In this document: piece after piece, positions 4,735-63,034 of the stretch
Position numbering within the stretch: the stretch's first letter is position 1
How the letters are laid out: every line of letters begins with the position of its first letter
Origin: Candidatus Brockarchaeota archaeon
Lineage (GTDB): Archaea > Thermoproteota > EX4484-205 > JAAOZP01
DNA length: 64,000 nt
Assembly (NCBI GenBank): GCA_017601225.1
Contig: JAFNIX010000011.1
Location: 1,121 to 65,120, forward strand
Direction: 5' to 3'
The notes under the pieces: generated by a model
The model's database searches: none
What the model saw: only the letters and a program-made list of their open reading frames with translations
What the model was told of the DNA's origin: nothing
Made by a program: the position numbers and the translations under genes

Positions 4735-4979
4735 TGGATTACTAGAGCAAAAATAAGGTAACTATCGTGCTTTAAAGGGGGTAAGCAATAGTTAGCACGC
4801 GCTAATACTTCGGAAACGTTTAAATAGTATGGAATCCTTTCCCTCCTCCTCGGATACTTCAGTGTCGAAACCAATACATGGTGGCAGAGGAATAAGCGTA
4901 AGCAGGTTTCCAGCAATCCGTATCCATTTCCTCCAAGTTGGAATTTTTACCGAAGCCTACCGATTAAAAGGTGTTTTAA

Positions 4980-13172: not shown

Positions 13173-13258
13173 ACCCCCTCTGTGACTGTTAGAAAATTTT
13201 TAAGATTTTCGAACACGTTGGATAAACTTATTAGGCTTAAGCCTAGTAAGAAACCGGC

Positions 13259-13576
13259 TTGAAGAGGAAAACAGACCAGGTTGATAAAATACTCGAGCTG
13301 CTTGCTAGGAGAAGGCTTGAAGAGGCTGAGAAGCAGCTGGATGGGTTTAAGCCCAGCGGCGGATACGAGGCTGGCTACTTCAAAGGCTTGAGAGGAATTC
13401 TTCAAACGCTTAGGAAGCCTGTTGAAGGAAGCATTGTCGGAGAGCCTAAGGAGGATTTGGAGAAGCATGTGAAAAGCCTCATGGAAACGGTTGAAACACA
13501 TTGCTTAAGCCAGGAGGAGGAGGGGTTTTTCGCAGCCTGGGTTGACTTCCTGGAGAAACTATTCGTAGGGGAATAG
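13259..13576 (+). CDS. small helical hypothetical protein (105 aa)
   Basis: It has charged, helical, protein-like composition, whereas the overlapping antisense ORF 13169..13501 looks like a shadow ORF. The TTG start is uncertain. Confidence 0.4.
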   Translation: MKRKTDQVDKILELLARRRLEEAEKQLDGFKPSGGYEAGYFKGLRGILQTLRKPVEGSIVGEPKEDLEKHVKSLMETVETHCLSQEEEGFFAAWVDFLEKLFVGE

Positions 13577-43000: not shown

Positions 43001-44519
43001 CTGCTATAAGGGTTCTACTCCTTCCTGTGACTGCTGGAGACACTTGGTCCCACCTGATTCCCCAGTCTATCGAATTGGAGAGCTCATGAATTATAGCTAG
43101 GCTTAAGTAAACCTGGGGCCAAAGATTATCATATTGAACATTCTGGCTCAGCGGCAGTCCCCAGAAGAAGTTTAAGGTTCTACCCGTCTTTATCGTGAAG
43201 CCTAATCCATGAGCCATGGATAATGGCTCAGAATCCAGAATATATGGGGTCACTTGAGACCCCCACCAAGCATTCATGGGGAAACCGTAGATTACCTCTA
43301 CGGGGCTTACTTCCCTGCTAAAAGCATTCACTATATCCATAAGCTTTGTCTGCAACCATCCAGTCCATCTTGCCTGAACGGTTGTACTCCCATACCTGTA
43401 GAAAAACCCTTGACTGAGAAAAGATATGCTCTTAGAGCTTGTCGAAAAATCCATGTTGATCTGCAGCCAAATCTTAGTGTGCCCCTCAACAACACTATTG
43501 TTATAGAAGAACTCGTCCACAAAGGCTCTGGAGCCTGCAAGCGCCTCATAGTGGCCGGAGAAAGCAACGAACCAAATTGTCCTTTTAGGTTTCTTATCCG
43601 AGAAAACTCGTGCAAATTCTAGTAAGGCTGAAATCGATGTCGCCTCGTCTTTCGAAGATGCTAATGCAGGAACGACTGACCATGTATCGAAGTGGGTTGA
43701 AACAACAATTACATCATTCGGGTAATCCGTACCTTCTAATATACCAATTATATTTTGGCCGACAACGTTTTTGAAGACCATATTATTTACGATGGTGGCT
43801 TCAATTTCACCATTATTCTCCTCAAGCAGGTTTAAAACGAATAAAGCGTCTTTTCTAGAAATGTAAAGCCTCGGCAAGTATACTGGAGTAAGCAGGAACT
43901 TCGACCTGGCTTCAGCATGATTGCTCTCCTCAGGCTCGATGAAGATAACTCCCTTTGCCCCGAATGCAGCAGCCTGAACCCAGTTGCCCCCACTATTAAA
44001 ATCCATCAGAACGATCGTCCCGTTTATAGGCTTACCTTTAAGGGCTTGATAACTCCCGTCTCTAACGTAGAGGAGTTTACCGGAAACTCCTTCTGGAGGA
44101 GTCTTACAGGTTTGAATAAGATTAGGCCATAGTGAGAAGACCTTTATCCTATAAGAGCGGTCCTTGGTTTTCAGAACGATGTAGTTATCACCGTCTATTG
44201 GACTTACCACAGTGTAATTCTGAACAATTACCTTTAACCCTAATTCTTTAAACCTATCAGCTATGTATCTTGAAGCCCTATAGAAATCAGGGTAACCGGT
44301 TACTCTCGAGCTTAGAGAGGAGAAGAATTCCAAATGTTCAACAAGCCTCGACTTATCAAAATTTGACAAAACTGTTTGGAAGTCTCCAACATCATCCGGC
44401 TGGGCTTTCACGCTGAAAAAGGCTCCCATGCTGGAGAGCAAAGCTACCCCTATTAAAACCAAGATGAATGGAGTGAAAAAGTGTCTCCAGCATTCTTGCA
44501 AATCTTTATCAAATCTCAT
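40017..44519 (-). CDS. giant membrane protein: N-terminal TM + PA domain + M28-like peptidase domain + large extracellular region + two FtsX/MacB-like permease modules + cytoplasmic tail
   Basis: M28-like motifs VVSTHFDTW…SSKDEATSISALLEFARVF…FVAFSGHYEALAGSRAF. The FtsX signature VKERRGDLFVYSAVGLPPSGSAIMLIIEAVAYSILSVVPAYFLG lies near the C-terminus, with an earlier TM cluster. The ATG at 44519 has GAGGTGA 10 nt upstream (the track's TTG is at 44525). Confidence 0.75.
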   Translation of the reverse strand: MRFDKDLQECWRHFFTPFILVLIGVALLSSMGAFFSVKAQPDDVGDFQTVLSNFDKSRLVEHLEFFSSLSSRVTGYPDFYRASRYIADRFKELGLKVIVQNYTVVSPIDGDNYIVLKTKDRSYRIKVFSLWPNLIQTCKTPPEGVSGKLLYVRDGSYQALKGKPINGTIVLMDFNSGGNWVQAAAFGAKGVIFIEPEESNHAEARSKFLLTPVYLPRLYISRKDALFVLNLLEENNGEIEATIVNNMVFKNVVGQNIIGILEGTDYPNDVIVVSTHFDTWSVVPALASSKDEATSISALLEFARVFSDKKPKRTIWFVAFSGHYEALAGSRAFVDEFFYNNSVVEGHTKIWLQINMDFSTSSKSISFLSQGFFYRYGSTTVQARWTGWLQTKLMDIVNAFSREVSPVEVIYGFPMNAWWGSQVTPYILDSEPLSMAHGLGFTIKTGRTLNFFWGLPLSQNVQYDNLWPQVYLSLAIIHELSNSIDWGIRWDQVSPAVTGRSRTLIAAGATDVAGFITVYGRTLTFNVTKGWYTPLPNAMVAVFPGGLGYTNYPFQIIYVFSDSEGRFEVRGLGYGLAPCQGAYTFLAFRLNEETGLIEYAPDFGQYGAQYLPNYYQLNTDPYNVTTIAFRSNTVVFFNLFDYQGLRPLIFRDPRVPTNIWLQSIPSVQLLNAKSLGPDISWGVFLQPDDKILVAFVQPHTYFVSFMTIGSMRVLQVLLTNTSTALIPPYDFSGYCSKDNEEIHINALLESALNIYTTSVNRYSGLRELNIWNPLIQDSLNNALFYRGLLSDSLRTLDYLTMLQSAVSLNSIVVRTYGGVMGLINDIPTTSIFLIIILALFSFLAPAVFIRAQGKIVAASSGIIFIVMMLLLYYVNPIFKLAANFIMAPLSVIVVVFFVIVTFLFSSEALNTLKTIRRKALGAHFAERSLTSFTLVIFPYTIEHMKRRKLRTSLVMLSIASVVFAFVSLTSVSIFQAPMPSTIPEGKVNYIGICIKTNIRQQPAGAFDYDLINILKQERFADLTVIVAPRFWWYPESIEGRDVYTFIKTNISSTTIKAVIGLTPEEYQVYDYSKALIEGRWFNSEDYYSAILPLNIAKDLSVKVGDTIVFEGLNLKVVGIVNSSTLNSFVNFDGYIDTPLYPILPSIVLGTVQEPQYAPTPWSMMLILPHELVKDMGGYLASVSIVTKSYDDAATLAERIANVYSIPIYVSSQEGAKYYSPIVSFTPSGLSFALPLIVIGAASISVAVLGSVKERRGDLFVYSAVGLPPSGSAIMLIIEAVAYSILSVVPAYFLGVVANSLLIAGKLLPESFSLNATSLSIALAIFAGILSTLLAMFYPIRMASKLITPSLERKWKIPTKPKGNIWDIPLPFSLTEEKEVEAVYLFLEEFFKAHTSETPDPFIVRSIKTDLKGKTQELLVSLMPLDSGVYQRALINSKFYEDTRKYDFLLRLERIEGTPDTWVALNYGFIDAVRKQLLTWKMISDSEKNKYIELVDKGGMR

Positions 44520-44592
44520 TAGCAATCTTCACCTCTTCTAACATCCTGCCCGTAACAATTTATGATAAAAAAGAGTTTTTAAGGTTTTCTGA

Positions 44593-46602
44593 TTAAAATC
44601 TTCCGAGCCATGATGGCAGCGATACATTGAAGAAAGTGATTAAAGCTCCGAATAATACTAGAACGCCGAAGCCTATACCAATCCCCATTGCTATCGGCAT
44701 CCATTTTTCCTCGAATACTCTTGAGCCGCCGAACTTGAGGACCGCATATTTTACGATGAAGGCTACGAGCCAAGCGGGCCAGAAGCCCTCAGGCAACATC
44801 ATTAGACCTACTGGATTTATGAAGAACCACCGGAACCTTGACCTAAGACTATAGCATGCGAAGACGAATATCGTGCCCACTATAGTATAGGTCCATGTCT
44901 CCGCGACGGTTACTGCTGGAGGCGTACCGTAAGTGTAATTGTAAATTGTCGGCAGCATCCAAGCATCGTATTGTATAGAGTTTATCCTTGAGTATCCTCC
45001 GAAGCTTGTCATGAACCATGGCCATATGAAGTAAGCAGCAACGGCAGTAACTACTATAGAGGTTAACGCAACATAGAGTATTTCTTTATAGCTTGTATTA
45101 GTCGCCTCGCCTATTTTGAAGGACATGAAGCCCCAGTGTATGTTCATAGGACTCATCCTGGAGCCAGCTAATCCTAGTGAGGTGTACATCAACATAGCAT
45201 TGAATGCGTCTGGAGATGGTCTTTGACCCCACTGGCCTAGGAAAGTACCTGTGTCGAAAACTATGCCGTGATAGGAGCCACCGTAGGGATAGAAGTGTTG
45301 CTCTCCCATTATTCTTATCCAAGCGAACATGATGAAGACATAGAATATTGGGATGAATACTGCCATCACTATTGGTGTTCCCGCTACGGCGAAGAGTATG
45401 ATTTGGATAAGTAGTGTTCCTATGGCGCCGAACGCCATAAGCCTATATGAAATACCACCCACATCTCCACCTTCCCCAGAAATACCTTTTCTAAGAACTT
45501 CCAAGATATACTTATAGTACTTGAAAACTACGTATAGGGCTATGCCTACGGAAACAAGAGCGTCAAACTGGGCCCACTTGAATACTCCGAGCGAGTACGG
45601 GTATTGAGTCTCGTTTCCAGCGCCTGGTGTGAACGGGTTTATTCCCAGTCTGACAGCAGCTGTTTGGAATAGAACTCCCCAGATAAACCACCAGAGGGTA
45701 GCTGTCGCCAACACGTCTAAAGGAATCAGTTGTCCTATGGAAAAAGCATCAATAACATAAAAGTTGCCGACGAGTAATGCTCCGGGCAATGGGCCAGATG
45801 TTATAGCCAAAAGGTCTACTGGCCAGTTGGCCAGCGCATTGCCTCCGAAGGCCAGTGGCCAGAAGTTTATAACCTGCCCAGGAATTGAAAGCAGCATTCC
45901 TATGATAAGCCCTATGTAGAAGAACTTTACGCTGCCAATTTTCAGGTTGAATAGGTTAGGCTTATCGTCACTTGTCGTGGTGAAATTGTTTATCATGAAG
46001 CTTACTGGCATGACCCAGGGAAACGGCAGTTTTTCTACCTCCATTAACGGCTTTATTAGCATAGTTCCCCAGAACCACAAGGTTGCGAATTCGACGATTG
46101 ACCAGACTATCCAGAAGAGGATTGGTACTAACCATGGGCCAATGTCGAAGGCACCGCCATACCAGAAAGCGTTCATAACAACAGGATCCTTAGGAACAAT
46201 GAAAGGCGGAACTTTCTCGTAGAAAACTGCTTTGTATGCTTCCGTGTTTAGACCTGTTGTTGCATGTGCGATGCTCCAATTTGTTATCGGCGTAGTAGTC
46301 CAGTAGCCTATTCCCTGTGCAGCATAGTAGCTGCCAGCAGTTATATAGCAGATTACGAAGAACAGTGTTAGCTCCTGTGAAGAAAGCCTGATCCTTCCAG
46401 AGAGTTTAGATAGCACATAGATTATCACAAGATTCCAGAAGAATGGCAACGGGAATATTAATGGATAGTTCCACCATGCTCCGAAGCCCTGCATCACCAG
46501 GTTTAGAAAGTATCCTACTGGAGGAATCAGTATTGCGGAAATTATGATCCATGTTTTCAGGCCAGAAGGCTTAACCCTTTCCTTTGGAGCTGTTTCCCCC
46601 AA
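44593..46602 (-). CDS. 669-aa polytopic membrane protein, paralog A (OPT-superfamily-like, tentative)
   Basis: More than 14 TM segments. Motifs MEVEKLPFPWVMPVSFMIN and NWPVDLLAITSGPLPGAL. The TTG start is supported by AGGTGAT (46608-46614) 5 nt upstream. It is first in the operon with the 1500-aa and 642-aa genes. Confidence 0.65.
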   Translation of the reverse strand: MGETAPKERVKPSGLKTWIIISAILIPPVGYFLNLVMQGFGAWWNYPLIFPLPFFWNLVIIYVLSKLSGRIRLSSQELTLFFVICYITAGSYYAAQGIGYWTTTPITNWSIAHATTGLNTEAYKAVFYEKVPPFIVPKDPVVMNAFWYGGAFDIGPWLVPILFWIVWSIVEFATLWFWGTMLIKPLMEVEKLPFPWVMPVSFMINNFTTTSDDKPNLFNLKIGSVKFFYIGLIIGMLLSIPGQVINFWPLAFGGNALANWPVDLLAITSGPLPGALLVGNFYVIDAFSIGQLIPLDVLATATLWWFIWGVLFQTAAVRLGINPFTPGAGNETQYPYSLGVFKWAQFDALVSVGIALYVVFKYYKYILEVLRKGISGEGGDVGGISYRLMAFGAIGTLLIQIILFAVAGTPIVMAVFIPIFYVFIMFAWIRIMGEQHFYPYGGSYHGIVFDTGTFLGQWGQRPSPDAFNAMLMYTSLGLAGSRMSPMNIHWGFMSFKIGEATNTSYKEILYVALTSIVVTAVAAYFIWPWFMTSFGGYSRINSIQYDAWMLPTIYNYTYGTPPAVTVAETWTYTIVGTIFVFACYSLRSRFRWFFINPVGLMMLPEGFWPAWLVAFIVKYAVLKFGGSRVFEEKWMPIAMGIGIGFGVLVLFGALITFFNVSLPSWLGRF

Positions 46603-47319: not shown

Positions 47320-48351
47320 TTAGGCTAGATGTTCGTCTGGGAAATCCTCCTCTAGAGGCAGTGAAACTGATTTCTTTCTTAGAATAGAGATGACCCCCGC
47401 TATCGCCAATTCTAATGCCTTTCTCCCATCTTCTCCCGACACAGGGACAGGGGTATCCCTTTTTACACATTCTTTGAAAGCTTCCAGTTCAAGAAAGTAC
47501 GGATCTTTGGTTTCCAAGATAATTCTTTTCCTTTTTACTGAACCTCCGGTTAAAAAGATATCGATTTGTTTAGGATTGTTACTACCTATCCGAATCAATC
47601 CCTTGGTACCGATAACCTCAAGGTTATAGGTGAAAGGATAACCTTCAGGCATTATCCAACTTCCTTCAACGTAAGCGCCAAGCGTATTTTTAAACAAGAT
47701 GAAGGCCCTAGTATGATCGTGAGAATAAGCCCTTCTTACTAAGGTTCCGCCTTGGGCATATATCTCTCTTGCGTTCCCAAAAGTCCATATGAAGAAGTCA
47801 AGATCATGAATACTAGTGTCTATGAAAACACCGCCTCCCTTGTGGGGATCATTATGCCAATCTTTCCATACGGAAAAATTATGGGCAATCAGTCGATTGG
47901 CTTTTGCAAAAACAGGCATTCCAATTTCACCATCCATTATTAAACTCTTGGCCATTATGTATTCCGCCCAGAATCTTAGAACATGAGCAACCATAAGTTT
48001 CCTCCCTGAATTCCTAGCCTTGTTGATCATGCTTTCAGCATCCTTAAGTTTTAAGGCTACTGGTTTTTCAACAATAACATTCTTCCCGTATTCTAGTGCA
48101 GTCTCCGCGATCTCTTTGTGCGTATATGTTGGGGTGCACACATCCACTATATCCACAGAGCTGTCTTTTAAAACTGGATCTAGGTGTTCGTAAAAATTTG
48201 GTATATGAAATTTTTCACTCATCTGCTTAGCCCTCTCCCTTTCCACATCTACGCATGCTAAAAGCTCTACACCGCTTATAGACTTCCAACGATCAATGTG
48301 AATCTGACCTATGTTTCCGCAACCGACAACAGCCGCTCCCAAACTATTCAT
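47320..48351 (-). CDS. Gfo/Idh/MocA-family oxidoreductase
   Basis: LGAAVVGCGNIGQIHIDRW Rossmann motif, VDIVDVCTPTYTHKEIAETALEYGKNVIVEKPVA. AT-rich coding sequence. Confidence 0.85.
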   Translation of the reverse strand: MNSLGAAVVGCGNIGQIHIDRWKSISGVELLACVDVERERAKQMSEKFHIPNFYEHLDPVLKDSSVDIVDVCTPTYTHKEIAETALEYGKNVIVEKPVALKLKDAESMINKARNSGRKLMVAHVLRFWAEYIMAKSLIMDGEIGMPVFAKANRLIAHNFSVWKDWHNDPHKGGGVFIDTSIHDLDFFIWTFGNAREIYAQGGTLVRRAYSHDHTRAFILFKNTLGAYVEGSWIMPEGYPFTYNLEVIGTKGLIRIGSNNPKQIDIFLTGGSVKRKRIILETKDPYFLELEAFKECVKRDTPVPVSGEDGRKALELAIAGVISILRKKSVSLPLEEDFPDEHLA

Positions 48352-48632: not shown

Positions 48633-48660
48633 GGTTAAAACCTAGTGGTTAAAACCTAGC
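48633..48660. repeat. tandem duplication of a 14-nt unit spanning the stop codon of paralog B (ggttaaaacctagt / ggttaaaacctagc)
   Basis: Read directly, 13/14 identical. The second unit contains the stop and the last 3 codons (…ARF*). Confidence 0.85.
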
Positions 48661-50658
48661 GAACCATGCTGGCAAAGCTGTTCCGAAGAAAGTTATCAAG
48701 GCGCCGAAGAGCACTAAGCCGCCGAAGCCTATGCAGGCTCCCGTTGCCATTGGCAGCCATCTTTCTTCAAAAACTCTTGCACCGCCGAACTTGAGAACCG
48801 CATACTTTATAACGAAGGCTACAAGCCAAGTTGGCCACCACCCGTTCGGGAGCATCAGCATTCCTATCGGGTTTATGAAGAACCAGGTGAATCTAGCTCT
48901 TAAGAAGTAGATCAGCGGTGTGACGACTATTCCGAGCAATGCATAGCCCCAAGTTTCTTCTACTGTGAGGGCTGGAGGAGTACCGTATGTCCAGTTGTAT
49001 ATTCCTGGGAGAGACCAGTCATTGTAGCTTATCGAGTTGATTCTAGAATATCCTCCGAAGCTCGTCATGAACCATGGCCATATGAAGTAGACCGCAACTA
49101 GCGTTGAAAGCAGCGAGATTATGGTGATGTAGAGAACTTCCTTTCCTGACGTGTTGGTCTCGTAAGCCATCTTGTAGGATTTGAATCCATGGTGCATCGC
49201 CATGGAGCTCATTCTTAACCCTGTGCCATAGCTGTAATACATCAGTATCGTGTTGAAAGCTGCTGGAGATGGTCTGGGGCCCCACTGGCCTAGGAAAGTG
49301 CCTGTGTCAAACACTAGGTATGAATAGGTGTCTACGCTTGGCATGAACTCCTCAACTTCACCCATCATCCTTGTCCATCCAAACATGTAGAAAATGAAGA
49401 ATAGCGGTATGAATATGGCCATGATTATCGGCGAACCTGTGACGGTGAACAGGATGACTTGAAGCAGGTATGTGCCTATGGCTCCCCAGGCTAGGAGTCT
49501 ATAGGAAACTCCATCGTCCTCAGCCTTTTCCCCCTTCAGACCCTTCTTGAAGATTTCCAAAATATGCTGCCTATACTTGACCACAACGGTAGCAGCCAGA
49601 CCTAGTGATAGACCTATCCAGGAAAACTGCATCCATTTAAATGGGCCCAGGTTCCAAGGATATGCAAACTCGTTACCTGCTCCCGGTGTGAATGGGGCTA
49701 GGCCGGTTCTAACAGCTAAAGTTTGATAGATTACACCGAAGACAAACCAGTAAAGAACTGCTGTGGCCAGTGCATCTAAAGGTATGAACTGTGCTACGAA
49801 CACGTCAGTGACATAAAGGTTGCCGGAAGTTAATGCTCCGGGCAATGGGCCAGATGTTATAGCCAAAAGGTCTACTGGCCAGTTTGTGAGGGCATTGCCT
49901 CCGAAGGCCAGTGGCCAGAAGTTTATCACCTGCCCCGGAATCGAGAGCAATGCTCCAATTATGAAGCCTATCCAGAAGAGCTTCGTCAACCTAAGTCTAA
50001 AGTTGAAGAGAATGGGAGTTCCCTCTTCTTCCTCCGTGTAGTATTTAACAAGATACGTGTGAGGCGCTATGCCTGGGAAAGGCAGTCTCTCAGTTTCGAC
50101 TAATGGCTTTCTAAGGAAATAACCCCATATTGCCATTCCAATGAATTGCCCTATTCCCCAGACTATCCAGAAGAGAATTGGAACCAGCCAAGGACCTAGG
50201 TTGAAGGTGCCGCCATACCAGAAGGCACGCATCACCACGGGATCCTTAGGGACAATGAAGGCAGGGACTTTCTCATAGAAGACACTTTGGTATGCTTCGT
50301 TATTTAATCCAGAGGTTGAGAAACCTATGTTCCAATGTGGAAGCGGAGTGGTGGTCCAATAGCCGAATCCGTATGCAGCATACATTCCACCTGCTGTTAT
50401 GAAGCATACCACGAAGAATAATGTGACCTCCTGTGGGGAAAGCTTAAAACTTTTAGACATTTTGGTTAGTAAGTAGAATATTACTATATGCCAGAAGAAT
50501 GGCAACGGGAATATTAATGGATAGTTCCACCATGCTCCGAAGCCCTGTATTATTAGGTTTAGAAAGTATCCTACTGGAGGAATCAGTATTGCGGAAATTA
50601 TGATCCATGTTTTCAGGCCAGAAGGCTTAACCCTTTCCTTTGGAGCTGTTTCCCCCAA
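48649..50658 (-). CDS. 669-aa polytopic membrane protein, paralog B (OPT-superfamily-like, tentative)
   Basis: Same length as paralog A with no indels (constant 4056-nt offset). The first 35 residues are identical and the remainder is clearly diverged. Motif VETERLPFPGIAPHTYLV. Confidence 0.65.
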   Translation of the reverse strand: MGETAPKERVKPSGLKTWIIISAILIPPVGYFLNLIIQGFGAWWNYPLIFPLPFFWHIVIFYLLTKMSKSFKLSPQEVTLFFVVCFITAGGMYAAYGFGYWTTTPLPHWNIGFSTSGLNNEAYQSVFYEKVPAFIVPKDPVVMRAFWYGGTFNLGPWLVPILFWIVWGIGQFIGMAIWGYFLRKPLVETERLPFPGIAPHTYLVKYYTEEEEGTPILFNFRLRLTKLFWIGFIIGALLSIPGQVINFWPLAFGGNALTNWPVDLLAITSGPLPGALTSGNLYVTDVFVAQFIPLDALATAVLYWFVFGVIYQTLAVRTGLAPFTPGAGNEFAYPWNLGPFKWMQFSWIGLSLGLAATVVVKYRQHILEIFKKGLKGEKAEDDGVSYRLLAWGAIGTYLLQVILFTVTGSPIIMAIFIPLFFIFYMFGWTRMMGEVEEFMPSVDTYSYLVFDTGTFLGQWGPRPSPAAFNTILMYYSYGTGLRMSSMAMHHGFKSYKMAYETNTSGKEVLYITIISLLSTLVAVYFIWPWFMTSFGGYSRINSISYNDWSLPGIYNWTYGTPPALTVEETWGYALLGIVVTPLIYFLRARFTWFFINPIGMLMLPNGWWPTWLVAFVIKYAVLKFGGARVFEERWLPMATGACIGFGGLVLFGALITFFGTALPAWFARF

Positions 50659-54285: not shown

Positions 54286-54897
54286 CTAATCGAACTCCAC
54301 GTAGAACCAGAATCTCATCTTAGGATACTTATGGTGAAAACCTGTGGTCTTAGTTAGGAACGTCCCAACGTCTTTCATGAACGCATTAATGATGCCTAGA
54401 TTATCATTAATTTTCTTGTCAATCTCCTCGGTAGGCATGTCCCTCTTAGCTATTCGTTTAACGGCTTGCCACATTATCCTCCTATCCTCCTGGTTTTCTC
54501 GGCAGAGGAAAATTTCACCGCTTGCAAGAACCTTTATCTCGTCCTGCACCTCCTTCAAATCAAGTATTTCGCATGGCCAGAATACTCTTGGTACGATGTA
54601 GTCGCCATGACCCCAGGGATACTCGCTTCTTATCCAGGCCTTCACTTTCCGCCTCAGTTGCTCATACACCTCCCTTATCCCCTCTCGCTTCGAGAACTTG
54701 AGGTCGTATGCGGTAGCTAGGATGGTCGCCATATGTCTAAGCCCCTTCTGCCACAGGACATAGAATGCGTCTATACCAAGCCGCTCATCCGGAATGAGTA
54801 CAGGATGGTAAGAAATATCCCGCAGCTCCTTCTCCGCCTCAGATCTTTCCTCTTCCTTCTTCCATTTATAACAGACAAATAGATGATATTCGCCCAT
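54286..54897 (-). CDS. 203-aa hypothetical protein, last gene of the three-gene operon
   Basis: The ATG lies 5 nt after the stop of the 1820-aa gene. Soluble, Trp/Lys/Glu-rich (…FVCYKWKKEEERSEAEKELRD…YPWGHGDYIVPRVFWPCEILD…). I recognise no domain. Confidence 0.55.
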   Translation of the reverse strand: MGEYHLFVCYKWKKEEERSEAEKELRDISYHPVLIPDERLGIDAFYVLWQKGLRHMATILATAYDLKFSKREGIREVYEQLRRKVKAWIRSEYPWGHGDYIVPRVFWPCEILDLKEVQDEIKVLASGEIFLCRENQEDRRIMWQAVKRIAKRDMPTEEIDKKINDNLGIINAFMKDVGTFLTKTTGFHHKYPKMRFWFYVEFD

Positions 54898-54902
54898 CTC
54901 CT

Positions 54903-57900
54903 TTAACCACCAACCATCCCCTTAACCTCATCTAAGCTCTTAAGCTCCCCTTTAATATAGATTTCCAGCGGCACGTAGAGTTGCTCATGCAACCCTATGG
55001 CATGCTTCACATAGTATTTTGCTCCTTCTCCAGTAATATCGTTTCCGATAAAAAGCCTTATCGTAATCTTCTTGTCACCCAATATTTGCATCTTTGCATA
55101 AGTAAAGTAGTCTGTTATTTGACCCGGATCCGTTTCAGTTTCATATCCATGTTTACACTCCACAAGAGTTATAGTTCCATCCCGACCCTCCGTCGTTATG
55201 TCAATAATTCTATACCTTGTTTCGGATAATTCAAGTTTCTTCTCTATCGCAACTATACTCTCACCTATGCTCTTGAAGAGGGTTATCGCATTGATCTCAA
55301 GCAGGGTGTGCTCTGGGTTCTTGTTAAGCTGGTCAAGTATTCCTCTCTTAATGCTTCCATCCATACTTATGAACACGGGTTTTGTCTTCTCATCCTCCAC
55401 GTATTCTCCCACGAGGAGATTCTTCAGCGTATCCGGCTTATCGGATCGGCCGTAGTAGTTCTCTAGCTCATGGACTAGTTTGAGCAGTTTCAGGTCTCTG
55501 AAGGTGTCCTCTTTATCCCTGTAGATCGCTAGCTCAGCGTGTAACTTCCCATCCTCACCTATATTCAGGCGTAAGCCTAAAACATGATCGTCGGGTAGAG
55601 TCATCTTCAAGTATTTCCTAGGGCCCATAGTGTCGACGTAAGGCTCTTCAACAGGTATTCTTACCTCCTCGTATCCAACCTTGGCTGCAAGCTCGTAGCC
55701 ATCACCAGTGGTGGATGTTAGCCTAACCGTTTTACCTACAAGGTCAACCCCGTCAATACCATCAATCCTGACCACGTAAAGCCCTATTATCCCGTCCTCC
55801 TTCACCGGATGATGCTTGAAGCTGAACTCCAGCTCCTGGCTCCAAACGCTGTGAATAGTATTGTCCTCGCCAACGTAGACAAGTGCTAATGCAGCCTTCT
55901 TGCTTCTAAGCATGTTTCTAAGATTCTCCAACCCGTTTCTGCCAAGCACTTTCTCAAAGTCCTCGCCGAGGGTGATTTTCGTCTGGCCTGCTGCAACCCC
56001 CCTAAGCCTATCCCTGTCGCGGAGGAAGAACGTGCCAGTGTCGGGAATGCTTCTCTCCATAACCAGGTGCATGGGGCTCGCCTTCTCCCCGTAAGTTATC
56101 TCGAGAAGCTTCGCCAGCACCTTTCCAGCCCCATCGTCGAAAACCTTGAAGCCTATGCCTACAACCCTCTGCTTGAAAACCGTCTCGCCCTTAGCTGCCT
56201 GCCCCAAGTAGAGCTCCCCGCTTATTGAAAGCCTAAACTGCTGCGTGTCCCTATCGACATCATCATACTTGAACTCCAAGTAGACTGAGCCCGAGGCAGC
56301 CTTAACATTCGCATCCAGCTCAGCCACAGGCTCACCGCTGCTTGTGACCAGCAACATCCTGTCTCCACCTCCCAGCCTGACGAACTTTGGCGGCGCCTCA
56401 ACATCCTGTAAGAAGTCCTTCACACCATACGGTGTGAAGACAGCCAGATAATCCCTATTCGTATCGAACTCCGCCTCTCTGAACCTAAGAGTTCTCTTCT
56501 CCTCAATAACGCCTCGCTCATTCTCCTCAACCGTCCCCCTGACGCCCTCAGCTGCATCCTCCCCTGTCTCCGGGTCTATCACCGTGACCCGGTAGACCCC
56601 TGGCTCAACCCCCTTCTCCTCAATGATCAGGCTGTCACGGGAGTCTGGCTCCAGGAAAACCGTCTTCAGTCTCCTCGTGAACACGTTGAGCCAAGTGTCA
56701 AGTCTCTCAGGATGCTTAACGACATTCTCGAGGAAAACCTTGGCGACCCGTTTCCCGTAATGATCCCCGGCTGAGAAATACGCGTCGAAGAGCTTAAGCC
56801 CGTTCTCGAAGCCTCCCCCAACCTTGGTTAACGCCTTCCCAATACTGTTGAGCTCCTCGTCGCCAAGCCCCATGGATTTCTGCAACGCGTAGAGGGCTTC
56901 ACCTAACCCCTTCTTTTCCAGGCTTCCAAGCCAGTCCATCAACAGTTTCCCAGGCTCGCCACCCTTCTTCCATGCCTCCAGCTTGCTTACCCTCTTCCAT
57001 GCTTCGACAATAGTCTTCGCGGTGTCCTCTCTGCCAACGTATTCCTCCCCCATCCTGCCAAGTATGCTCAGAATCCTCGTTGCAATGCTTTCAGGAACAC
57101 CTTTATCCGATGTGACTCTGTCGACGATGTTTGAGGCTCTTTTCGCAATTTCCTCTGGCTCCCCACCGTCGGGGAGTGTTTTCAAAGCCTTTTCAACGTT
57201 TTCCCCGAAGTCTTTGCTAACTTGGCCTGCGAAGATTAGCCTCAAAACATCCGGTAGGGTGAGTTTGCCCTTCAACCATGCTCCGAATTTCATCCCTGTT
57301 TCAGCAAGGTCCCATATTGCTGGGGTTACCCAAGCGTAGAGGCCCTGTGCAAACCTTTTCAAAACTGAGGATGCTGAGATTCGCCCAGATTGCCCAGCCA
57401 TCGTTAGCATATCCCTTGCCGTTGAGAACTCGTGGTAGATGGTTGCGAACGTCGCCGCGTAGGTTACTGCCTCAATCATAGCGCCCACGATTTTACCTGT
57501 TGCGTAGCCCTGCTCGTACTCGCCCGCGTTTTTCCATCCTAGTGCTGTCTTGACTTCTTCGAGCTTAACGTCCATTACGAGCCTTAAGCCTAGGTCGCTA
57601 GCTACCTCTCCCGCCTTGCTGAGGAATGTTTGAGAAAGGTTGTCGCAAATGGCTGCGAAGCCGTGTTTGCCTTGTAACCTGTAGCCGGTGGCCATTCCAC
57701 TGTATATTAGCCCCATGGCTGTGAGGTTTCTTAACGCGGTGGTCGCGTTGAATATCTCTCCCCTCTGGTTGTAGACTTGGTATGCTTTAAGAAACGTGAG
57801 GGCAACCGCTATCACGGGCATGAGCTCCCTCGGAACCATCGCGACCGTGCCAAGCATCATCATGTTCACCATTATCCTATCGCTCCTATTGATGAGGCCT

Positions 57901-60365
57901 AGGATGAAGCCCCGCCACCATTGCAGTGAAAGAGGAAATGGTGGGCTTAGAACCCTAGGTAGGAAGAGCTCAGCTACAAGCCTATCACCCTTACGAAGCC
58001 TTATCCAGAAGGTTGTGTTCGAGAAGAGGAGTATGCTTAACTCTTTGCAGCATGCTTTCTCAGCTTTCAGTATTGTGCTCTCAGATTTTCCAGGTGGAAG
58101 GGTGACTGGCTCAACGGTAAACGTGTAATCTATGTCTTGCGTCGCATAGTTTCTCAGCCAGATGCCCCTTATTAATGAGCTTTCCAGAGGAGTCTCTTGA
58201 AGCGGGTGGTAGAGCAGGATAATCCTGTTAGCATAGAGCTCTCTTTCAAGAGGAGTTAGCTCGAGTATCGCATCTGAGGAGGGCCACTCCTCTTTGTTGC
58301 CGTCCTCATACCAGTAGCATCCTTCTCGTATTCTTCCGAAGTCCTCCTGCTGAAGCCTCCTGTAGGCTGATGTGTCAACCCAGAGCGGTTTCCTAACCAC
58401 CCTCTTTGAAGCAAGGGTAACCTTGTATCCCTCTGGGGCAACTATTTCCCCGCAGCCCGTGACGTTGAGAATACTCTTAGCCTCATTCTCCCTTACCAAC
58501 TTCTCTTCGAAAGCTGGCATGACACTCTTCACCACGTATTTCACTGGGACTGTTGTCTGCAGCCCTTGGACAGGGATAAGGGGGCCTACGAGGACATCAC
58601 CATAGATGTTTAACGTAACTTCTTTAGGGATGACTCTGAGTTCGAAGCCCTCGTCTGCGATAGGCAGGAACGAGGTGTAGACCTTGACGCCTTCAGCCTC
58701 AAGGATGAGGCCTTGGAAGCTTATGGTGAAGCTTCCCGGTATTTCGAAAGCTGAGTAGGGATGGTAGATTTTAACGTGGGTGTAGCCCTCGTAGCCTGGG
58801 ACGAAGACCCTCCTCTTCTCAAAATGCTCTGGAACCCTTAAAGTGTACTCTTCGAAGTGCTCTGGCACGACGTAGGCTGGTGAAACAACCGTTGTAAAGC
58901 CCTCTGAAACATACTTGTTCCCGGAGGAGTCGAAGAATATTGCCCTAGCCCTTATGCTTGCAACCTCCGATCTCAGCTTAAGAGTAACCATCCTGATCCA
59001 TGTTTCACAAGCAGGTATGCTTCCAACACTGAGGCTAAGAGGCTCAACGTCGCCAGTGAACTCTAAGACTGTGTTGAGGGCTTCGCCTGCACCCTTGTTC
59101 TCAAGCCTAACCGTAATGTTAACATGCTTGAAAAACGGCTCCCCGCCTTCAAGGCTAACCTCAACCCTGGGCGACTCAGGACCGACAACATTAACAGTGT
59201 AGGTGACCTCGTCCGGCGGAGGCCAGCCTGGGAAGAAAGCATTCCCGTCAAGCTTAAGCGTTAATATGTAGGTTCCCGGTGCGATGGCTTTCAGCTTGAA
59301 GCACCCCTGGGTTTGAGTATTGTTGAGCACGCGTCGAGCATCGTCTAAAGGCTCGAAGCCATCTGGGTAGTGGAGGGTTAGGGTAGCGTTGAGAGGTTGC
59401 TCCTCAGGGTCGATATAGAGTGGCGTGGCGACGTAGCTTACCTCCAGAATATCCCCGGTTTCAACACTGCTGGATGAGAGGCTTGCCTCGACGAGCCAGC
59501 CTGATAGCCAGACAGGATCGTAGGCTGGGAAAAGTACTCTAAAATTCTCCTCGTGCTCTGGAATTAGGACGTCGATATCCTCGTAGTGACCTGGGACAGC
59601 AACTAGGAAAGATGGCGTTGATCTTGAGAAGTCTATCATTGTCCCGGGTGGTATCGTGGTCAGGTTCGCATACTCCGGGAAATATTTGAGCAGGAAGGAT
59701 GGGAAGGATGGTTGAGCAGATCCTCCAGCAATCCCGAACTCAGGGTATACTCCAAGACTCAAGCTGGATAGAACACTATGGGCCTCACCTGTTTCAAGAT
59801 CCATGTAGGTTATGTTGTAGAGGCCCTCTATCCTCCTCCTAATCTTGTACCACCTTGTTTCCGTAACGTTGTAGACGAGGTGCTGCTTGCCCCCTATCGC
59901 CCTGGAGTAGACGTGGAAGCATGCTGGGAGAGTGCGGAACAGGGGGACGTCGATAGGGATGTGGATTAAGACTGCTCCGAAACCGTTTCTCTTAACGTAA
60001 GCCTTGTCATACCTTATCTGGAAGCTCTCGTTTCCAACCCTAGCTGCATCAGGAAGCCTAACACTCTCCATGAGGCTTGAGAAAGCCGTGCGAATATCGT
60101 TGTCATCCGCGCCATGGCTTACGAAGGATGCTGCATAACGCCAAAGATTCTTAACGTCGTCCATCGAAACACCCTCAGGCATTATGAACTCTCTGTCGCT
60201 AAGAGGCCCCTCCGGAGGGATTCCCAGCTCTATCTCCCTTATGAGCGTGTCGAGCTCAACGCTAGCAGGCTGCTCCCCGGCCCCGCCTAGGTTGACTAGG
60301 ATTACAGGGTTCTCAGCGGCGAGAAGGATGAGAATAAGCAGTATACCTGTTACCCTCTTCATCAT
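54903..60365 (-). CDS. 1820-aa multidomain envelope protein: signal/anchor + beta-rich sequon-dense N-half (CARDB-like segment) + hydrophobic cluster + sequon-free C-half ending in a PD-(D/E)xK nuclease-fold domain
   Basis: N-terminus MMKRVTGILLILILLAAENP. CARDB-like VEVSLEGGEPFFKHVNITVRLENKGAGEALNTVLEF (about 58930-59175). Hydrophobic cluster IMVNMMMLGTVAMVPRELMPVIAVALTFL … GKIVGAMIEAVTYAATFATIY (about 57430-57880). C-terminus RYRIIDITTEGRDGTITLVECKHGYETETDPGQITDYFTYAK (D…ExK…QxxxY). The start ATG overlaps the upstream stop (ATGA). Confidence 0.8.
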   Translation of the reverse strand: MMKRVTGILLILILLAAENPVILVNLGGAGEQPASVELDTLIREIELGIPPEGPLSDREFIMPEGVSMDDVKNLWRYAASFVSHGADDNDIRTAFSSLMESVRLPDAARVGNESFQIRYDKAYVKRNGFGAVLIHIPIDVPLFRTLPACFHVYSRAIGGKQHLVYNVTETRWYKIRRRIEGLYNITYMDLETGEAHSVLSSLSLGVYPEFGIAGGSAQPSFPSFLLKYFPEYANLTTIPPGTMIDFSRSTPSFLVAVPGHYEDIDVLIPEHEENFRVLFPAYDPVWLSGWLVEASLSSSSVETGDILEVSYVATPLYIDPEEQPLNATLTLHYPDGFEPLDDARRVLNNTQTQGCFKLKAIAPGTYILTLKLDGNAFFPGWPPPDEVTYTVNVVGPESPRVEVSLEGGEPFFKHVNITVRLENKGAGEALNTVLEFTGDVEPLSLSVGSIPACETWIRMVTLKLRSEVASIRARAIFFDSSGNKYVSEGFTTVVSPAYVVPEHFEEYTLRVPEHFEKRRVFVPGYEGYTHVKIYHPYSAFEIPGSFTISFQGLILEAEGVKVYTSFLPIADEGFELRVIPKEVTLNIYGDVLVGPLIPVQGLQTTVPVKYVVKSVMPAFEEKLVRENEAKSILNVTGCGEIVAPEGYKVTLASKRVVRKPLWVDTSAYRRLQQEDFGRIREGCYWYEDGNKEEWPSSDAILELTPLERELYANRIILLYHPLQETPLESSLIRGIWLRNYATQDIDYTFTVEPVTLPPGKSESTILKAEKACCKELSILLFSNTTFWIRLRKGDRLVAELFLPRVLSPPFPLSLQWWRGFILGLINRSDRIMVNMMMLGTVAMVPRELMPVIAVALTFLKAYQVYNQRGEIFNATTALRNLTAMGLIYSGMATGYRLQGKHGFAAICDNLSQTFLSKAGEVASDLGLRLVMDVKLEEVKTALGWKNAGEYEQGYATGKIVGAMIEAVTYAATFATIYHEFSTARDMLTMAGQSGRISASSVLKRFAQGLYAWVTPAIWDLAETGMKFGAWLKGKLTLPDVLRLIFAGQVSKDFGENVEKALKTLPDGGEPEEIAKRASNIVDRVTSDKGVPESIATRILSILGRMGEEYVGREDTAKTIVEAWKRVSKLEAWKKGGEPGKLLMDWLGSLEKKGLGEALYALQKSMGLGDEELNSIGKALTKVGGGFENGLKLFDAYFSAGDHYGKRVAKVFLENVVKHPERLDTWLNVFTRRLKTVFLEPDSRDSLIIEEKGVEPGVYRVTVIDPETGEDAAEGVRGTVEENERGVIEEKRTLRFREAEFDTNRDYLAVFTPYGVKDFLQDVEAPPKFVRLGGGDRMLLVTSSGEPVAELDANVKAASGSVYLEFKYDDVDRDTQQFRLSISGELYLGQAAKGETVFKQRVVGIGFKVFDDGAGKVLAKLLEITYGEKASPMHLVMERSIPDTGTFFLRDRDRLRGVAAGQTKITLGEDFEKVLGRNGLENLRNMLRSKKAALALVYVGEDNTIHSVWSQELEFSFKHHPVKEDGIIGLYVVRIDGIDGVDLVGKTVRLTSTTGDGYELAAKVGYEEVRIPVEEPYVDTMGPRKYLKMTLPDDHVLGLRLNIGEDGKLHAELAIYRDKEDTFRDLKLLKLVHELENYYGRSDKPDTLKNLLVGEYVEDEKTKPVFISMDGSIKRGILDQLNKNPEHTLLEINAITLFKSIGESIVAIEKKLELSETRYRIIDITTEGRDGTITLVECKHGYETETDPGQITDYFTYAKMQILGDKKITIRLFIGNDITGEGAKYYVKHAIGLHEQLYVPLEIYIKGELKSLDEVKGMVGG

Positions 60366-61540
60366 TTCCCTGATTCCCTTCCCTCCTGATGCTTCCTAAG
60401 CCTGCTGAGCCCGAGAGCCGCGAGGAGAGTGAAGACAAACAGGGAGGCGAGGATTATGCAGACGATTCTAAGCACGTTGTTCTCTCCCCTCAGGGCTTCA
60501 GCCTCACTCCTGACAGTTGCAAGTGTATTGTTGAGAGTATGCATTCGGCTGAGGCTGTTGAGCCATCTTTCCTCCAACACCCTATTTAACGCGTTAAGCT
60601 CAACCACGCTGGTGTTAAGCTCCACCACCTTAGAAGACAATTCTTCAACAAGGTGGGTTAGGGTCTCGTTGCTCTCCTCAAGCATTCCAACCCTATTCCT
60701 AAGCTCTGAATATGCTTTCCAGATTTCAACCTGAATGTTAAGCGTTGCGCCGAACGTCGAATCCATAGTCTTAACGTTGACAGTGAGATTCCCAGGCTCA
60801 GGCAACCTTGCAACATAAGCGTTGCCTTCGAGGATGATTGAGCAGGGGTCCCAGGTTAAACCGTGTCTCAGGATTCCCTCGACGCTGACGATGGACTGGC
60901 TTGAAGCAATGTTTAGCCTAACCTCTATGGCCTGCTCCCCAACCCTGATGGATGAGACACCTATGCTGGCGATGCTAACTGCTTGGGCACCCTCAACCCT
61001 AATCATGAAGTTCCTCGGCCTACCGCTCTTCTCATCCCATACTTTGACTATCCTGCCCTCCTCCCTGTTTACAAGCAGGCTTCTCCCGCTTATCGGAGGG
61101 TCTTCGTCAACACCTATCCAGAGCTGAGTGGCGTCGAGGGAGAAGCACGGGTATATGCAGACATAGAACTCGCCGTTAACAGTGATGTTTGGAAGAGGTA
61201 TCCTGGCCCAGCCGAAGGTGCCGTTCTTTAAAAACTGGAAGGTCGCGTACTGTTTAGTGTAGACTAGGCTGAAATATTGGTCTCTGACCTCAAGGGTGAA
61301 AAGCATGTTCCCACCCCTCTCCAACGCTAAGCCGTAGAAAACCACGCCGGTTATCCTCCAAGGCAGTGCTGGCGGGGTAAACCTGACTGCTGCGCCGCTA
61401 GGGTAGAAGTCGCTCCAAGCATAGTCGAAGCTCCCATCATCGTAAGCAAGCTCGAAGGGGGAAGCGTAAACCTTTAGAGGATTTAGGAGGAGAGTTGAGG
61501 ATAAGGCTAGGGCTAGAATAAGCCAGACATGCTTACTCAT
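60362..61540 (-). CDS. surface-anchored protein: signal peptide + beta-rich ectodomain + coiled-coil stalk + C-terminal TM anchor (SlaB-like architecture)
   Basis: Signal peptide MSKHVWLILALALSSTLLLNPLKVYA. 6 N-x-S/T sequons. Heptad-rich AYSELRNRVGMLEESNETLTHLVEELSSKVVELNTSVVELNALNRVLEERW…EAEALRGENNVL. TM RIVCIILASLFVFTLLAALGLS, then a basic tail. The ATG at 61540 is preferred over 61600 because a TATA-like element sits about 25 nt upstream of it. Confidence 0.7.
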   Translation of the reverse strand: MSKHVWLILALALSSTLLLNPLKVYASPFELAYDDGSFDYAWSDFYPSGAAVRFTPPALPWRITGVVFYGLALERGGNMLFTLEVRDQYFSLVYTKQYATFQFLKNGTFGWARIPLPNITVNGEFYVCIYPCFSLDATQLWIGVDEDPPISGRSLLVNREEGRIVKVWDEKSGRPRNFMIRVEGAQAVSIASIGVSSIRVGEQAIEVRLNIASSQSIVSVEGILRHGLTWDPCSIILEGNAYVARLPEPGNLTVNVKTMDSTFGATLNIQVEIWKAYSELRNRVGMLEESNETLTHLVEELSSKVVELNTSVVELNALNRVLEERWLNSLSRMHTLNNTLATVRSEAEALRGENNVLRIVCIILASLFVFTLLAALGLSRLRKHQEGRESGK

Positions 61541-61563
61541 AGCTGGGTTAATAAGGGTTAAGG

Positions 61564-61573
61564 TTTTAAATAA
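61564..61573 (-). promoter_or_regulatory. TATA-box-like element (TTATTTAAAA on the minus strand) 23 nt upstream of ATG 61540; candidate promoter of the three-gene operon
   Basis: The minus strand reads AAAAACTTATTTAAAACCTTAACCCTTATTAACCCAGCT-ATG. The spacing fits a leaderless transcript. Confidence 0.45.
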
Positions 61574-62101
61574 GTTTTTCGAATACACGCATATTTTCAT
61601 CCTAACAAGTATGAATTAAGACGTTTTTAAGCACCAATATTACAGAATTCTTCTCAAAGGAACTTTTATGGTGGATTTCTTGGCTTGATGATATTTTAAG
61701 TACTTCGGTTCATATAGCGTGTATTATTTTTAGAATATTTGGTTAGAAAGCTAAATTTCATCTGAAAAGCATGTTTACTATTAATGTTCTGAGAGGAAAG
61801 GTACTTACGTTATAACAGAGAAATAATTATCCAAGTGGATGTATTATTTTGGGACGAAGAGGGATTAGGAATAGTCGACTCGATACCTCTGTTATGTGGA
61901 TGTCTTGAAAAATTGTCTTAAAATATTTTGGAAATCAAGTAAAATTTAAGCGCCGGTACTACACGTGCGACTAATTGCTTAATATTTATAAACAAGAATC
62001 GCGGATACCAATATGAAAATGCCCCTGCCTAATAAGCGCGCTTATTTGCTATATCTATCTAAATTATTAAAAAGAATAAGAAAAGAAATTTTTAAATAGA
62101 A

Positions 62102-63034
62102 TTATGCTTCCTTAACTCCTTCCAATGCCTCACGCAAACCCTTGTAACGGTTGCGAACAGTAACCTCAGTCACATTCGAAGCCTCAGCAATCTGCTTCTG
62201 AGTAAAAAGCTGTAAGCCTAATCTCTGAGTTGCAAGGTACATGGCTGCGGCGACCATGCCTAATGGGTCCTTCCCGGCCGTGATCTTTTTATCCTTCGCT
62301 TCTTTTAAAATTTTCAATGTTTCTCTTTCTACTTCTGGTCCGACTTTGAGTTTGCTTGCTACTTTTTCAACGTATATTGCTGGGTCGCTCAGGGGCATTT
62401 TGCTTTCAAGTGATCTGATTAGTAGCCTGTAGCTTCTCGCAACCTCTTTTCTTTTAAGCCCTGACGCGTTTGCAACCTCTTTAAGTGTTCTCGGTATTCC
62501 GCTGTCTCTGCACGCAGCATATAGTGCTGCCGCCGCAAGGCTGTTTATCGGTCTTCCTCTCACTAGTCCTCTTTCAAGCGCGTCCCTGTATATCTGTACT
62601 GCTCTCACGTATGTTGCTTTCGGCGCTTTAAGCTGGTCCGCTATTTGGGAGATTACTTTGCTCGCAACCTGGAGGTTTCTCTCCGCCGAGTTGTACGCTC
62701 TGTTTCTCTGCTGCCATAGTCTAAGCTTCTGGGCCTCAGCCATCGCTTTCTCGGATAGGACTTTTCCGGTTGCGTCTTTGATTCCTGTTTCAAGCGTTGT
62801 TGACAACCCGTAGTCGTATATTGCTGTCGAAAGCGGGCTTCCAACCCTGTCTCTTTTCTCAGACTCCTCGTCTCCGAATTCTCTCCACTCCTTAGTCTCG
62901 TCGAGCAGTTTCTGCACGAGCACGAAGCCGCATTCTGAGCAGTAGATTTCCCCAGACCTTTTATCCTCTACTATTTTCTTCGAGCCACACTGGGGGCATG
63001 CCCATCTCTGCAGCTCGTCTGTTGGGAGGCTCAT
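62102..63034 (-). CDS. tfb: transcription initiation factor B (TFIIB homologue)
   Basis: Zn-ribbon WACPQCGSKKIVEDKRSGEIYCSECGFVL, followed by two cyclin-like repeats (…RGRPINSLAAAALYAACR… / …GKDPLGMVAAAMYLATQ…). SD GGAGGT upstream of the ATG. Confidence 0.95.
   Translation of the reverse strand: MSLPTDELQRWACPQCGSKKIVEDKRSGEIYCSECGFVLVQKLLDETKEWREFGDEESEKRDRVGSPLSTAIYDYGLSTTLETGIKDATGKVLSEKAMAEAQKLRLWQQRNRAYNSAERNLQVASKVISQIADQLKAPKATYVRAVQIYRDALERGLVRGRPINSLAAAALYAACRDSGIPRTLKEVANASGLKRKEVARSYRLLIRSLESKMPLSDPAIYVEKVASKLKVGPEVERETLKILKEAKDKKITAGKDPLGMVAAAMYLATQRLGLQLFTQKQIAEASNVTEVTVRNRYKGLREALEGVKEA

Follow-up and report, generated by a model that had tools for sequence, protein, structure and literature searches.

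A giant Brockarchaeota protein with an exchangeable nuclease-tipped tail: a candidate polymorphic toxin-immunity locus on a novel scaffold

Why would a giant archaeal protein that begins with a signal sequence end in a nuclease? This question is raised by a gene for an 1820-aa protein on the minus strand (54903..60365) of a 64,000-nucleotide stretch of Candidatus Brockarchaeota DNA (GenBank assembly GCA_017601225.1, contig JAFNIX010000011.1, positions 1,121 to 65,120), hereafter the window. The identical protein occurs, under the label hypothetical, in a metagenome-assembled genome (MAG) of Candidatus Brockarchaeota. An earlier note on this DNA had pointed out a complete PD-(D/E)xK and QxxxY motif set at the extreme C-terminus, and had deemed a nuclease unexpected on a protein bearing a signal or anchor sequence. 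Our computational analysis indicates that the combination is no anomaly: it is what marks polymorphic toxins, and the family also has the mosaic tail, the co-varying partner gene and the orphan modules of such systems. With a probability of about 0.6, we read the locus as a polymorphic toxin-immunity system, in which a surface scaffold carries an exchangeable nuclease-tipped tail and the cognate protein is encoded directly downstream.

We began with the nuclease motif. The open reading frame (ORF) was recovered as described, its translation contains the stretch that had been quoted as nuclease-like, and the codons assigned to D1722 (55200-55202), E1736 (55158-55160) and K1738 (55152-55154) are correctly placed. 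The upstream Glu of the motif is the invariant E1708 (55242-55244), and the QxxxY motif is formed by Q1749 (55119-55121) and Y1753 (55107-55109), the catalytic-motif codons together spanning 55107..55244 on the minus strand. When the full-length protein was shuffled 20,000 times, the pattern E..hhD..hhExK..QxxxY, with the observed spacings, arose in only 0.055% of cases. Among homologues, the D, E, K, Q and Y positions are kept, as judged from an alignment of seven C-termini and from 44 profile-matched segments. The seven C-termini are 15-51% identical, and their sole invariant columns are G1701, E1708, D1722, E1736, K1738, E1742, Q1749 and Y1753. Across the 44 segments, E1708 was retained in 39 of 39, D1722 in 34 of 34, E1736 and K1738 each in 34 of 35, Q1749 in 31 of 34 and Y1753 in 29 of 34. 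This conservation speaks for the motif far more strongly than the shuffle test does. Related D..ECK..Q nuclease domains were also seen in two shorter proteins, which may represent a minimal version of the same idea: P0043 (356 aa), with a signal, sequons and a membrane segment, and P0045, a 154-aa fragment with none of the three.

Structural modeling points in the same direction. The alpha-beta-beta-beta-alpha-beta core typical of these nucleases is present in residues 1646-1820 (54906..55430, minus strand). An AlphaFold2 model of this region, built on the alignment of the seven C-termini, reached a predicted local distance difference test score (pLDDT) of 90.5 and a predicted template-modeling score (pTM) of 0.82. 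Its helices (H) and strands (E), numbered within the domain, are H39-54, E58-67, E73-81, E87-93, H102-117, E122-128, H135-151 and E155-159, and along the chain the elements run beta-hairpin, alpha, alpha1, beta1, beta2, beta3, alpha2, beta4, alpha3, beta5. E1708 falls on beta1, D1722 on beta2 (E73-81), E1736 and K1738 on beta3 (E87-93), and Q1749 and Y1753 on helix H102-117, a placement of the active site judged from secondary-structure positions alone. When the model was compared with the PDB using Foldseek, the top matches were all PD-(D/E)xK nucleases (E values 1.9e-4 to 4e-3, probability 0.87-1.0), including EndoMS (5gke, E 1.9e-4), NucS (2vld, E 2.3e-4) and the small subunit of R.BspD6I (2p14); ACE1 (9iab, ranks 5th to 10th), XisH, SfsA, Card1, Can2 and AdnAB were among them as well.

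Profile searches gave a divided answer. A search of the PDB with the alignment found ACE1 (9iac, E 0.0014), NucS (E 0.057) and EndoMS with the catalytic motifs aligned, but the domain itself had no Pfam or NCBIfam match even at E <= 10; a phmmer search of the full protein against PDB sequences returned noise only. The closest tail orthologue, P0008, matched Tox-REase-7 (PF15649; E 0.0016, 19.1 bits, below the 25-bit gathering threshold) and Mrr_cat (PF04471; E 0.0041, 17.7 bits, below the 21-bit gathering threshold), and these sub-threshold matches were the only ones that a Pfam search of nine other tail types produced. A profile of the nuclease domain, run against 1.84 billion representative proteins, retrieved 32 proteins, nearly all of the same family or fragments of it, and the domain is thus not a widespread named family. 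The fold assignment held up in each of the checks proposed earlier that can be run in silico, and we consider a PD-(D/E)xK nuclease fold very likely for residues 1646-1820. The domain is a new PD-(D/E)xK subfamily with an intact predicted active site, and it is probably an active metal-dependent nuclease, an activity that we infer. The label “RecB/Cas4-like”, which had been suggested for it, stands as regards the restriction-endonuclease fold and the QxxxY helix but not in the strict sense of Cas4, whose Fe-S Cys ligands are absent. Indeed, C1737 is the only Cys in residues 908-1820, and a domain with a single Cys is not a Cas4-type Fe-S nuclease.

The nuclease domain lies within a much larger variable unit. 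Compared with its near relatives (P0002-P0005, P0009 and P0010), the protein shows 75-95% identity as far as residue ~1140-1200, beyond which the value falls abruptly to 20-30%. The distant relative P0008, however, keeps ~40% identity along the full length, tail included. Because the near relatives drop in the tail while P0008 holds its level, tail and scaffold must have had different histories. The boundary in the protein falls directly after EAWKRVSKLEAWKKGGEPGKLLMDWL, the motif that closes a conserved post-membrane segment (residues ~978-1165; 56871..57434, minus strand). At the DNA level, identity is 75-90% up to ~56,900 and the breakpoint lies near position 56,870 of the window; the GC content, 0.50-0.55 before, is down to 0.42-0.46 in the stretch that encodes the nuclease domain and in the gene after it. 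The hypervariable cassette beyond the boundary (residues ~1166-1820; 54906..56870, minus strand) comprises ~655 residues, of which ~480 are uncharacterized and largely beta-rich and precede the nuclease domain. Despite very different sequences, essentially all tail types end in a D...ExK-like motif.

If the tail is exchanged as a unit, does a neighboring gene travel with it? The downstream gene (54286..54897, minus strand), a putative cognate immunity protein or inhibitor, starts 5 nt past the stop codon of the giant gene and encodes a 203-aa protein lacking a signal peptide. Its family comprises 20 homologues, all from the same lineage. The model of the protein is mostly helical (pLDDT 91.6) and had no fold match in the PDB or among the viral structures of BFVD (best E values 0.4 and 0.8), so that its fold, as modeled, is apparently new. 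We compared 19 loci pairwise. In 24 of the 171 pairs both the tail and the downstream protein were alike, in 4 the tail alone, in 13 the downstream protein alone and in 130 neither; the tail type and the family of the gene after it change together. P0005 illustrates this: it is 83% identical over the scaffold, yet it carries a different tail, followed by a gene for a 364-aa beta-propeller instead of the 203-aa type. The partner of P0005-type tails is a PQQ-like beta-propeller with repeats of YAVNPDGTLKWK (4680-5774 at locus L007 and 12513-13430 at L006), a fold that differs from that of the helical 203-aa partner in the window.

Cassettes are also found detached from any scaffold. At least eight truncated tail remnants are followed by a downstream-type gene within ~12 nt (L003, L006, L008, L009, L010, L011, L012 and L018), and homologues of the downstream gene in the window trail orphan remnants of the query tail type at L003, L008, L009, L010 and L011. 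For example, the giant protein of L003 bears a different tail, and downstream of it lies a remnant 81% identical to the last 52 residues of the query, followed 9 nt on by a gene 61% identical to the downstream gene in the window. At L010, a site without a giant gene holds an orphan tail corresponding to query residues 1540-1820 (76% identity), followed by a partner gene that shares 77% identity with its counterpart in the window, next to a DpnII restriction-modification (R-M) system. Similarly, at L006 a beta-propeller gene comes after a P0005-type remnant. The orphans at L008 and L010 have stop codons in front of them and are therefore not the ends of longer genes.

What, then, is the tail attached to? 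The N-terminal signal or anchor (MMKRVTGILLILILLAAENPVILV) reported earlier is present in the giant protein at residues 1-26 (60288..60365, minus strand; hydropathy peak 2.34), and hydropathy shows a hydrophobic N-terminus throughout the homologues. It is followed by an ectodomain (residues ~27-827; 57885..60287, minus strand) and by a membrane region (residues ~828-977; 57435..57884, minus strand), whose hydrophobic segments at ~828-848, ~850-868 and ~955-977 are conserved across homologues according to hydropathy in the alignment. The ectodomain is rich in N-glycosylation sequons (N-x-S/T). Over the first ~827 residues of 14 homologues we counted 168 sequons where 57 were expected, a threefold enrichment, with 9 versus 3.4 expected in the query. 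The loop between the second and third hydrophobic segments had 26 versus 8.8 expected, and the last sequon in any homologue corresponds to query position 946. Past the third hydrophobic segment, the homologues have a single sequon against 26 expected. Likewise, 19 diverse tails have 2 against 31.6 expected, a number as low as which was found in 0 of 2000 shuffles. The non-membrane ORFs of the window are at chance level, with 34 sequons against 33.3 expected. The query tail has none against ~2 expected, which alone is not significant; the signal is one of the family. Since the tail shuns sequons, it would at some stage meet the oligosaccharyltransferase and cross the membrane. This avoidance suggests that the tail is exported, and it may be the footprint of passage past the glycosylation machinery. 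One homologue, P0011 (1228 aa, partial), is 89% identical to query residues 97-641, then continues at ~1168-1427 and lacks the whole membrane region; it reflects either a deletion in nature or an error of assembly.

The scaffold gene does not stand alone at its 5' side either. An upstream gene in the same operon (60362..61600, minus strand, a 412-aa ORF) overlaps it by 4 nt. The start is probably M21 at 61540, where the signal peptide begins and from which NCBI calls a protein of 392 aa. Sequence and hydropathy show a signal peptide, an ectodomain of ~280 aa, a coiled coil and a C-terminal transmembrane anchor at 379-397. The protein had a weak match to a SlaB model (E 0.099), and a Pfam scan of it yielded coiled-coil noise only; its architecture is SlaB-like. 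In each of the 6 homologous loci examined, the gene is kept in front of the giant one, at 31-81% identity, and its family has 39 homologues, all from the same archaeal lineage. We also considered whether the giant protein and its SlaB-like partner form the main S-layer, which is unlikely in view of 3-5 divergent paralogues per genome and a nuclease tail swapped by cassette.

Five features thus co-occur: an N-terminal majority that is conserved, a variable C-terminus with a sharp boundary and a nuclease at its end, a gene directly downstream that varies with it, orphan modules, and several loci per genome. Taken together, they characterize polymorphic toxin-immunity systems such as contact-dependent inhibition (CDI; PMC9086364), and we therefore take the nuclease for the toxin at the tip and the downstream product for the matching immunity protein. 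Orphan C-terminal/immunity modules and a conserved-N, variable-C architecture define CDI and other polymorphic toxin systems (PMC9086364). In archaea such systems have been predicted, DNases and RNases being the commonest toxins, and none had been characterized as of 2021 (PMC8416519). In the mechanism we propose, the nuclease would be the effector tip of the ~655-residue exchangeable cassette, and the scaffold would be glycosylated, anchored in the membrane on the cell surface and co-expressed with the SlaB-like stalk protein. The downstream partner, predicted to be cytoplasmic, would most likely bind and neutralize the matching nuclease. The scaffold would present or deliver the tail to a neighboring cell, where the nuclease would attack nucleic acid, and kin would be protected by their cognate downstream protein. 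Recombination past residue ~1165 would swap tail and immunity cassettes together, with displaced remnants staying behind as orphans. Toxicity, neutralization, export and delivery between cells are what we infer from this layout.

Several observations weigh against this reading. The three central membrane segments, taken at face value, predict that the tail resides in the cytoplasm of the producer. We detected no known trafficking or release module (TPS/FHA, Rhs/YD, PAAR, LXG, PT-HINT or VENN-type) in full-length Pfam and NCBIfam searches and on inspection of the boundary, and no export or delivery machinery is recognizable in the sequences. Every tail type appears to end in one PD-(D/E)xK-like fold, as opposed to the many unrelated folds of classical polymorphic toxins. 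In the P0010 and P0016 tail types (the latter at L005) ExE replaces ExK, and these tips may be inactive or mechanistically different nucleases. Several tail types have downstream proteins that are homologues of one another, an uncommon trait among immunity proteins. The Foldseek TM-scores of the nuclease model are modest (0.3-0.44), and Pfam, NCBIfam, PADLOC and PHROGs yielded nothing usable for the giant protein, for its final 180-300 residues or for either neighbor. Finally, all loci come from MAGs, and some orphan fragments could be assembly artifacts, although the stop codons at L008 and L010 argue otherwise.

The cytoplasmic placement of the tail is the natural starting point for a different explanation, namely that the protein is a membrane-tethered antiviral nuclease. 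Its ectodomain and stalk partner would sense or bind a virus as it adsorbs, and a cytoplasmic nuclease, held in check by the downstream inhibitor, would cut the DNA where it enters, as in SNIPE, or trigger abortive infection. Membrane-bound nucleases that cleave injected phage DNA do exist (bioRxiv 10.1101/2025.11.03.685801), the homologous loci lie amid toxin-antitoxin, R-M and defense genes, and an arms race with viral inhibitors could diversify the effector end of such a protein. We nevertheless judge this explanation unlikely. It leaves the retained orphan remnants with matching partners unexplained, as well as the switching of the partner family with the tail type. Nor does it account for the avoidance of sequons in the tail, which cytoplasmic proteins of the same genome do not display. 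PADLOC gave no match, and the ectodomain, which is the part expected to face the virus, is the conserved part of the protein. A membrane-anchored nuclease acting in DNA uptake, in DNA exchange between cells or in DNA repair at the envelope, with the downstream protein as a regulatory subunit, would suit the nearest structural relatives, which include the repair nucleases NucS and EndoMS, and a chromosomal locus amid housekeeping genes. It would be hard to square, however, with 3-5 divergent paralogues per genome, a patchy distribution in one lineage, a hypervariable catalytic end and common orphan cassettes. The NucS Pfam model gave no match (the N-terminal DNA-binding domain and the PCNA-binding motif of NucS were not searched for). 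We consider such a DNA-handling role improbable.

Two further explanations concern the tip itself. Inactive PD-(D/E)xK domains are common in the superfamily, and the domain might accordingly be a restriction-endonuclease fold without catalysis, serving as a nucleic-acid- or protein-binding module whose variability would reflect recognition, for example in telling self from non-self as has been proposed for VARTIG. The ExE tips of P0010 and P0016 would fit such a role. In VARTIG, moreover, archaea have hypervariable C-termini without toxins (PMC8416519). In the query tail type, however, divergence down to 15% identity elsewhere in the domain leaves all six catalytic positions essentially invariant, which is the pattern of a maintained active site, and we give the non-catalytic module slightly less credence even than the DNA-handling role. 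A chance occurrence could be argued from the shortness of the motifs in so long a protein and from the lack of any curated family model that fits the query; yet the 0.055% of shuffles, the invariant columns and a confident fold that matches nucleases effectively refute it, and its probability is negligible.

Returning to the toxin-immunity reading, can the predicted cytoplasmic side of the tail and its avoidance of sequons be reconciled? Secretion of CdiA comes to a halt and continues upon receptor binding (PMC9086364), and a tail that shuns sequons despite its predicted cytoplasmic location would fit arrested secretion of the CdiA type. In such a scheme, the glycosylated N-terminal half would be displayed on the surface with the SlaB-like stalk partner, and the sequon-free C-terminal half, its nuclease masked by the immunity protein, would wait in the cytoplasm just past the third membrane segment. 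Upon contact, the tail would be threaded out and into the neighboring cell, and the avoidance of sequons would be the evolutionary footprint of passage past the oligosaccharyltransferase. TACK archaea would then have, in this locus, their first recognizable native machine for contact-dependent toxin delivery, which would combine an unrelated scaffold with a CdiA-like stalled export. We put this forward as a tentative elaboration, distinctly less probable than the toxin-immunity reading as such.

The family is confined to one corner of the archaea. A protein search returned 19 homologues, all from Brockarchaeota or Thermoproteota MAGs, nameless and without Pfam domains. When 185,579 species were scanned, each represented by one genome, 22 loci turned up in ~9 MAGs, with 3-5 loci each, all in genomes assigned to Brockarchaeota or labeled Thermoproteota, Nitrososphaerota or similar. 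Their neighborhoods are often rich in toxin-antitoxin and restriction genes, including PIN/MazE, ParE, HicAB, AbiEii, DndB, GmrSD and DpnII (L002, L004, L007, L009 and L010). Makarova and colleagues are said to have predicted archaeal polymorphic toxin systems in 2019. The family goes unmentioned in the paper describing Brockarchaeota and in a 2026 survey of archaeal immunity (Makarova et al. 2019 in mBio was not compared). It appears to be an undescribed, lineage-specific archaeal polymorphic nuclease-immunity locus on a novel scaffold.

The window itself is chromosomal, with carB, phosphoglycerate mutases, NFACT and TFB among its genes; in view of these housekeeping genes and of the lack of any PHROGs match, we rejected an origin of the locus from a mobile element or a virus. 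The operon is flanked by the TFIIB-family gene TFB (62102-63034), with a 500-bp AT-rich spacer (61601-62101, GC 0.35) in between. Adjacency to TFB recurs at L003 and at the scaffold-less site of L010, and the TFB-adjacent site may be a conserved variable hotspot. Other genes of the window also merit mention. A 1502-aa ORF (40017-44525, minus strand) fuses M28 peptidase, MacB periplasmic-core and FtsX permease domains in an unusual architecture. Two paralogous 669-aa multi-pass membrane proteins (DUF6785 + DUF6784; 44593-46602 and 48649-50658, both minus strand) have a GFO/IDH/MocA oxidoreductase gene (47320-48351) between them. Two paralogous cofactor-independent phosphoglycerate-mutase-like genes (PhosphMutase/Metalloenzyme; 11997-13172 and 20067-21395, both minus strand) lie less than 8 kb apart.

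For the most part, systems of conflict between archaeal cells are predicted ones, and the uncultured hot-spring phylum Brockarchaeota (PMC8065059) is not known to have any. Three genes make the locus a compact model: its catalytic residues are clear, the partner is matched, orphan cassettes occur naturally, and the scaffold has no relative in curated databases. In addition, the opposition of a sequon-rich ectodomain and a sequon-free tail may provide a new kind of evidence on which parts of a protein cross membranes unglycosylated. If the pattern holds more widely, it could serve as a search signature for exported or translocated effectors in other archaea.

How does the locus compare with known systems? 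NucS and EndoMS (2vld, 5gke) are the best structural matches to its nuclease, and the D...ExK...QxxxY residues align in the profile search. Their identity to the query domain is only 13-16%, however, with a TM-score of ~0.4; they are cytoplasmic repair enzymes of ~250 aa, whereas the query domain is the tail of an 1820-aa surface protein, and the NucS family model had no match in the query, the likeness being confined to the catalytic domain. The Cas4/RecB nucleases, including the Argonaute-associated ACE1, which is the best PDB profile match, share the order E/D/ExK/QxxxY. Cas4 typically has four Fe-S Cys, in contrast to the one Cys (C1737) of the query domain, and the query locus has neither a CRISPR nor an Argonaute context. 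Tox-REase-7, defined from bacterial polymorphic toxins, and Mrr_cat have the restriction-endonuclease fold as well, but P0008 stays below their thresholds and the query has no match; the domain would act in the manner of Tox-REase-7, although membership in that family is not established.

Among whole systems, SNIPE likewise tethers a nuclease domain to the cytoplasmic membrane (bioRxiv 10.1101/2025.11.03.685801). Unlike our family, it is bacterial, belongs to another nuclease family and architecture, and has no giant ectodomain, cognate partner gene or orphan cassettes. VARTIG of the Thermococcales is closer in organization: it, too, is a lineage-specific archaeal locus with a large surface protein, a C-terminus made hypervariable through recombination and variable downstream genes, and it resembles polymorphic toxin systems in its layout (PMC8416519). 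Its variable part is an Ig domain, and a toxin was not identified there (PMC8416519), whereas the query tail ends in a nuclease whose active site is conserved; no sequence relationship between the two families is detectable. The polymorphic toxin systems themselves (CdiA/CdiI, Rhs and the predicted archaeal ones) differ from our locus in the scaffold, since that of the query is unrelated to FHA, Rhs/YD, LXG and PT-HINT, has no Pfam match, contains three predicted membrane segments and shows no VENN-like boundary motif. In addition, all tails of our family have one fold, the host archaeon has no outer membrane, and our system is known from sequence alone. What unites them is the plan of the locus: a large secreted or surface protein, most of it a conserved N-terminal part, followed by a sharply demarcated, variable C-terminus ending in a nuclease (PMC9086364; PMC8416519), a small co-varying gene directly downstream, orphan remnants with their immunity genes, and several such loci in each genome.

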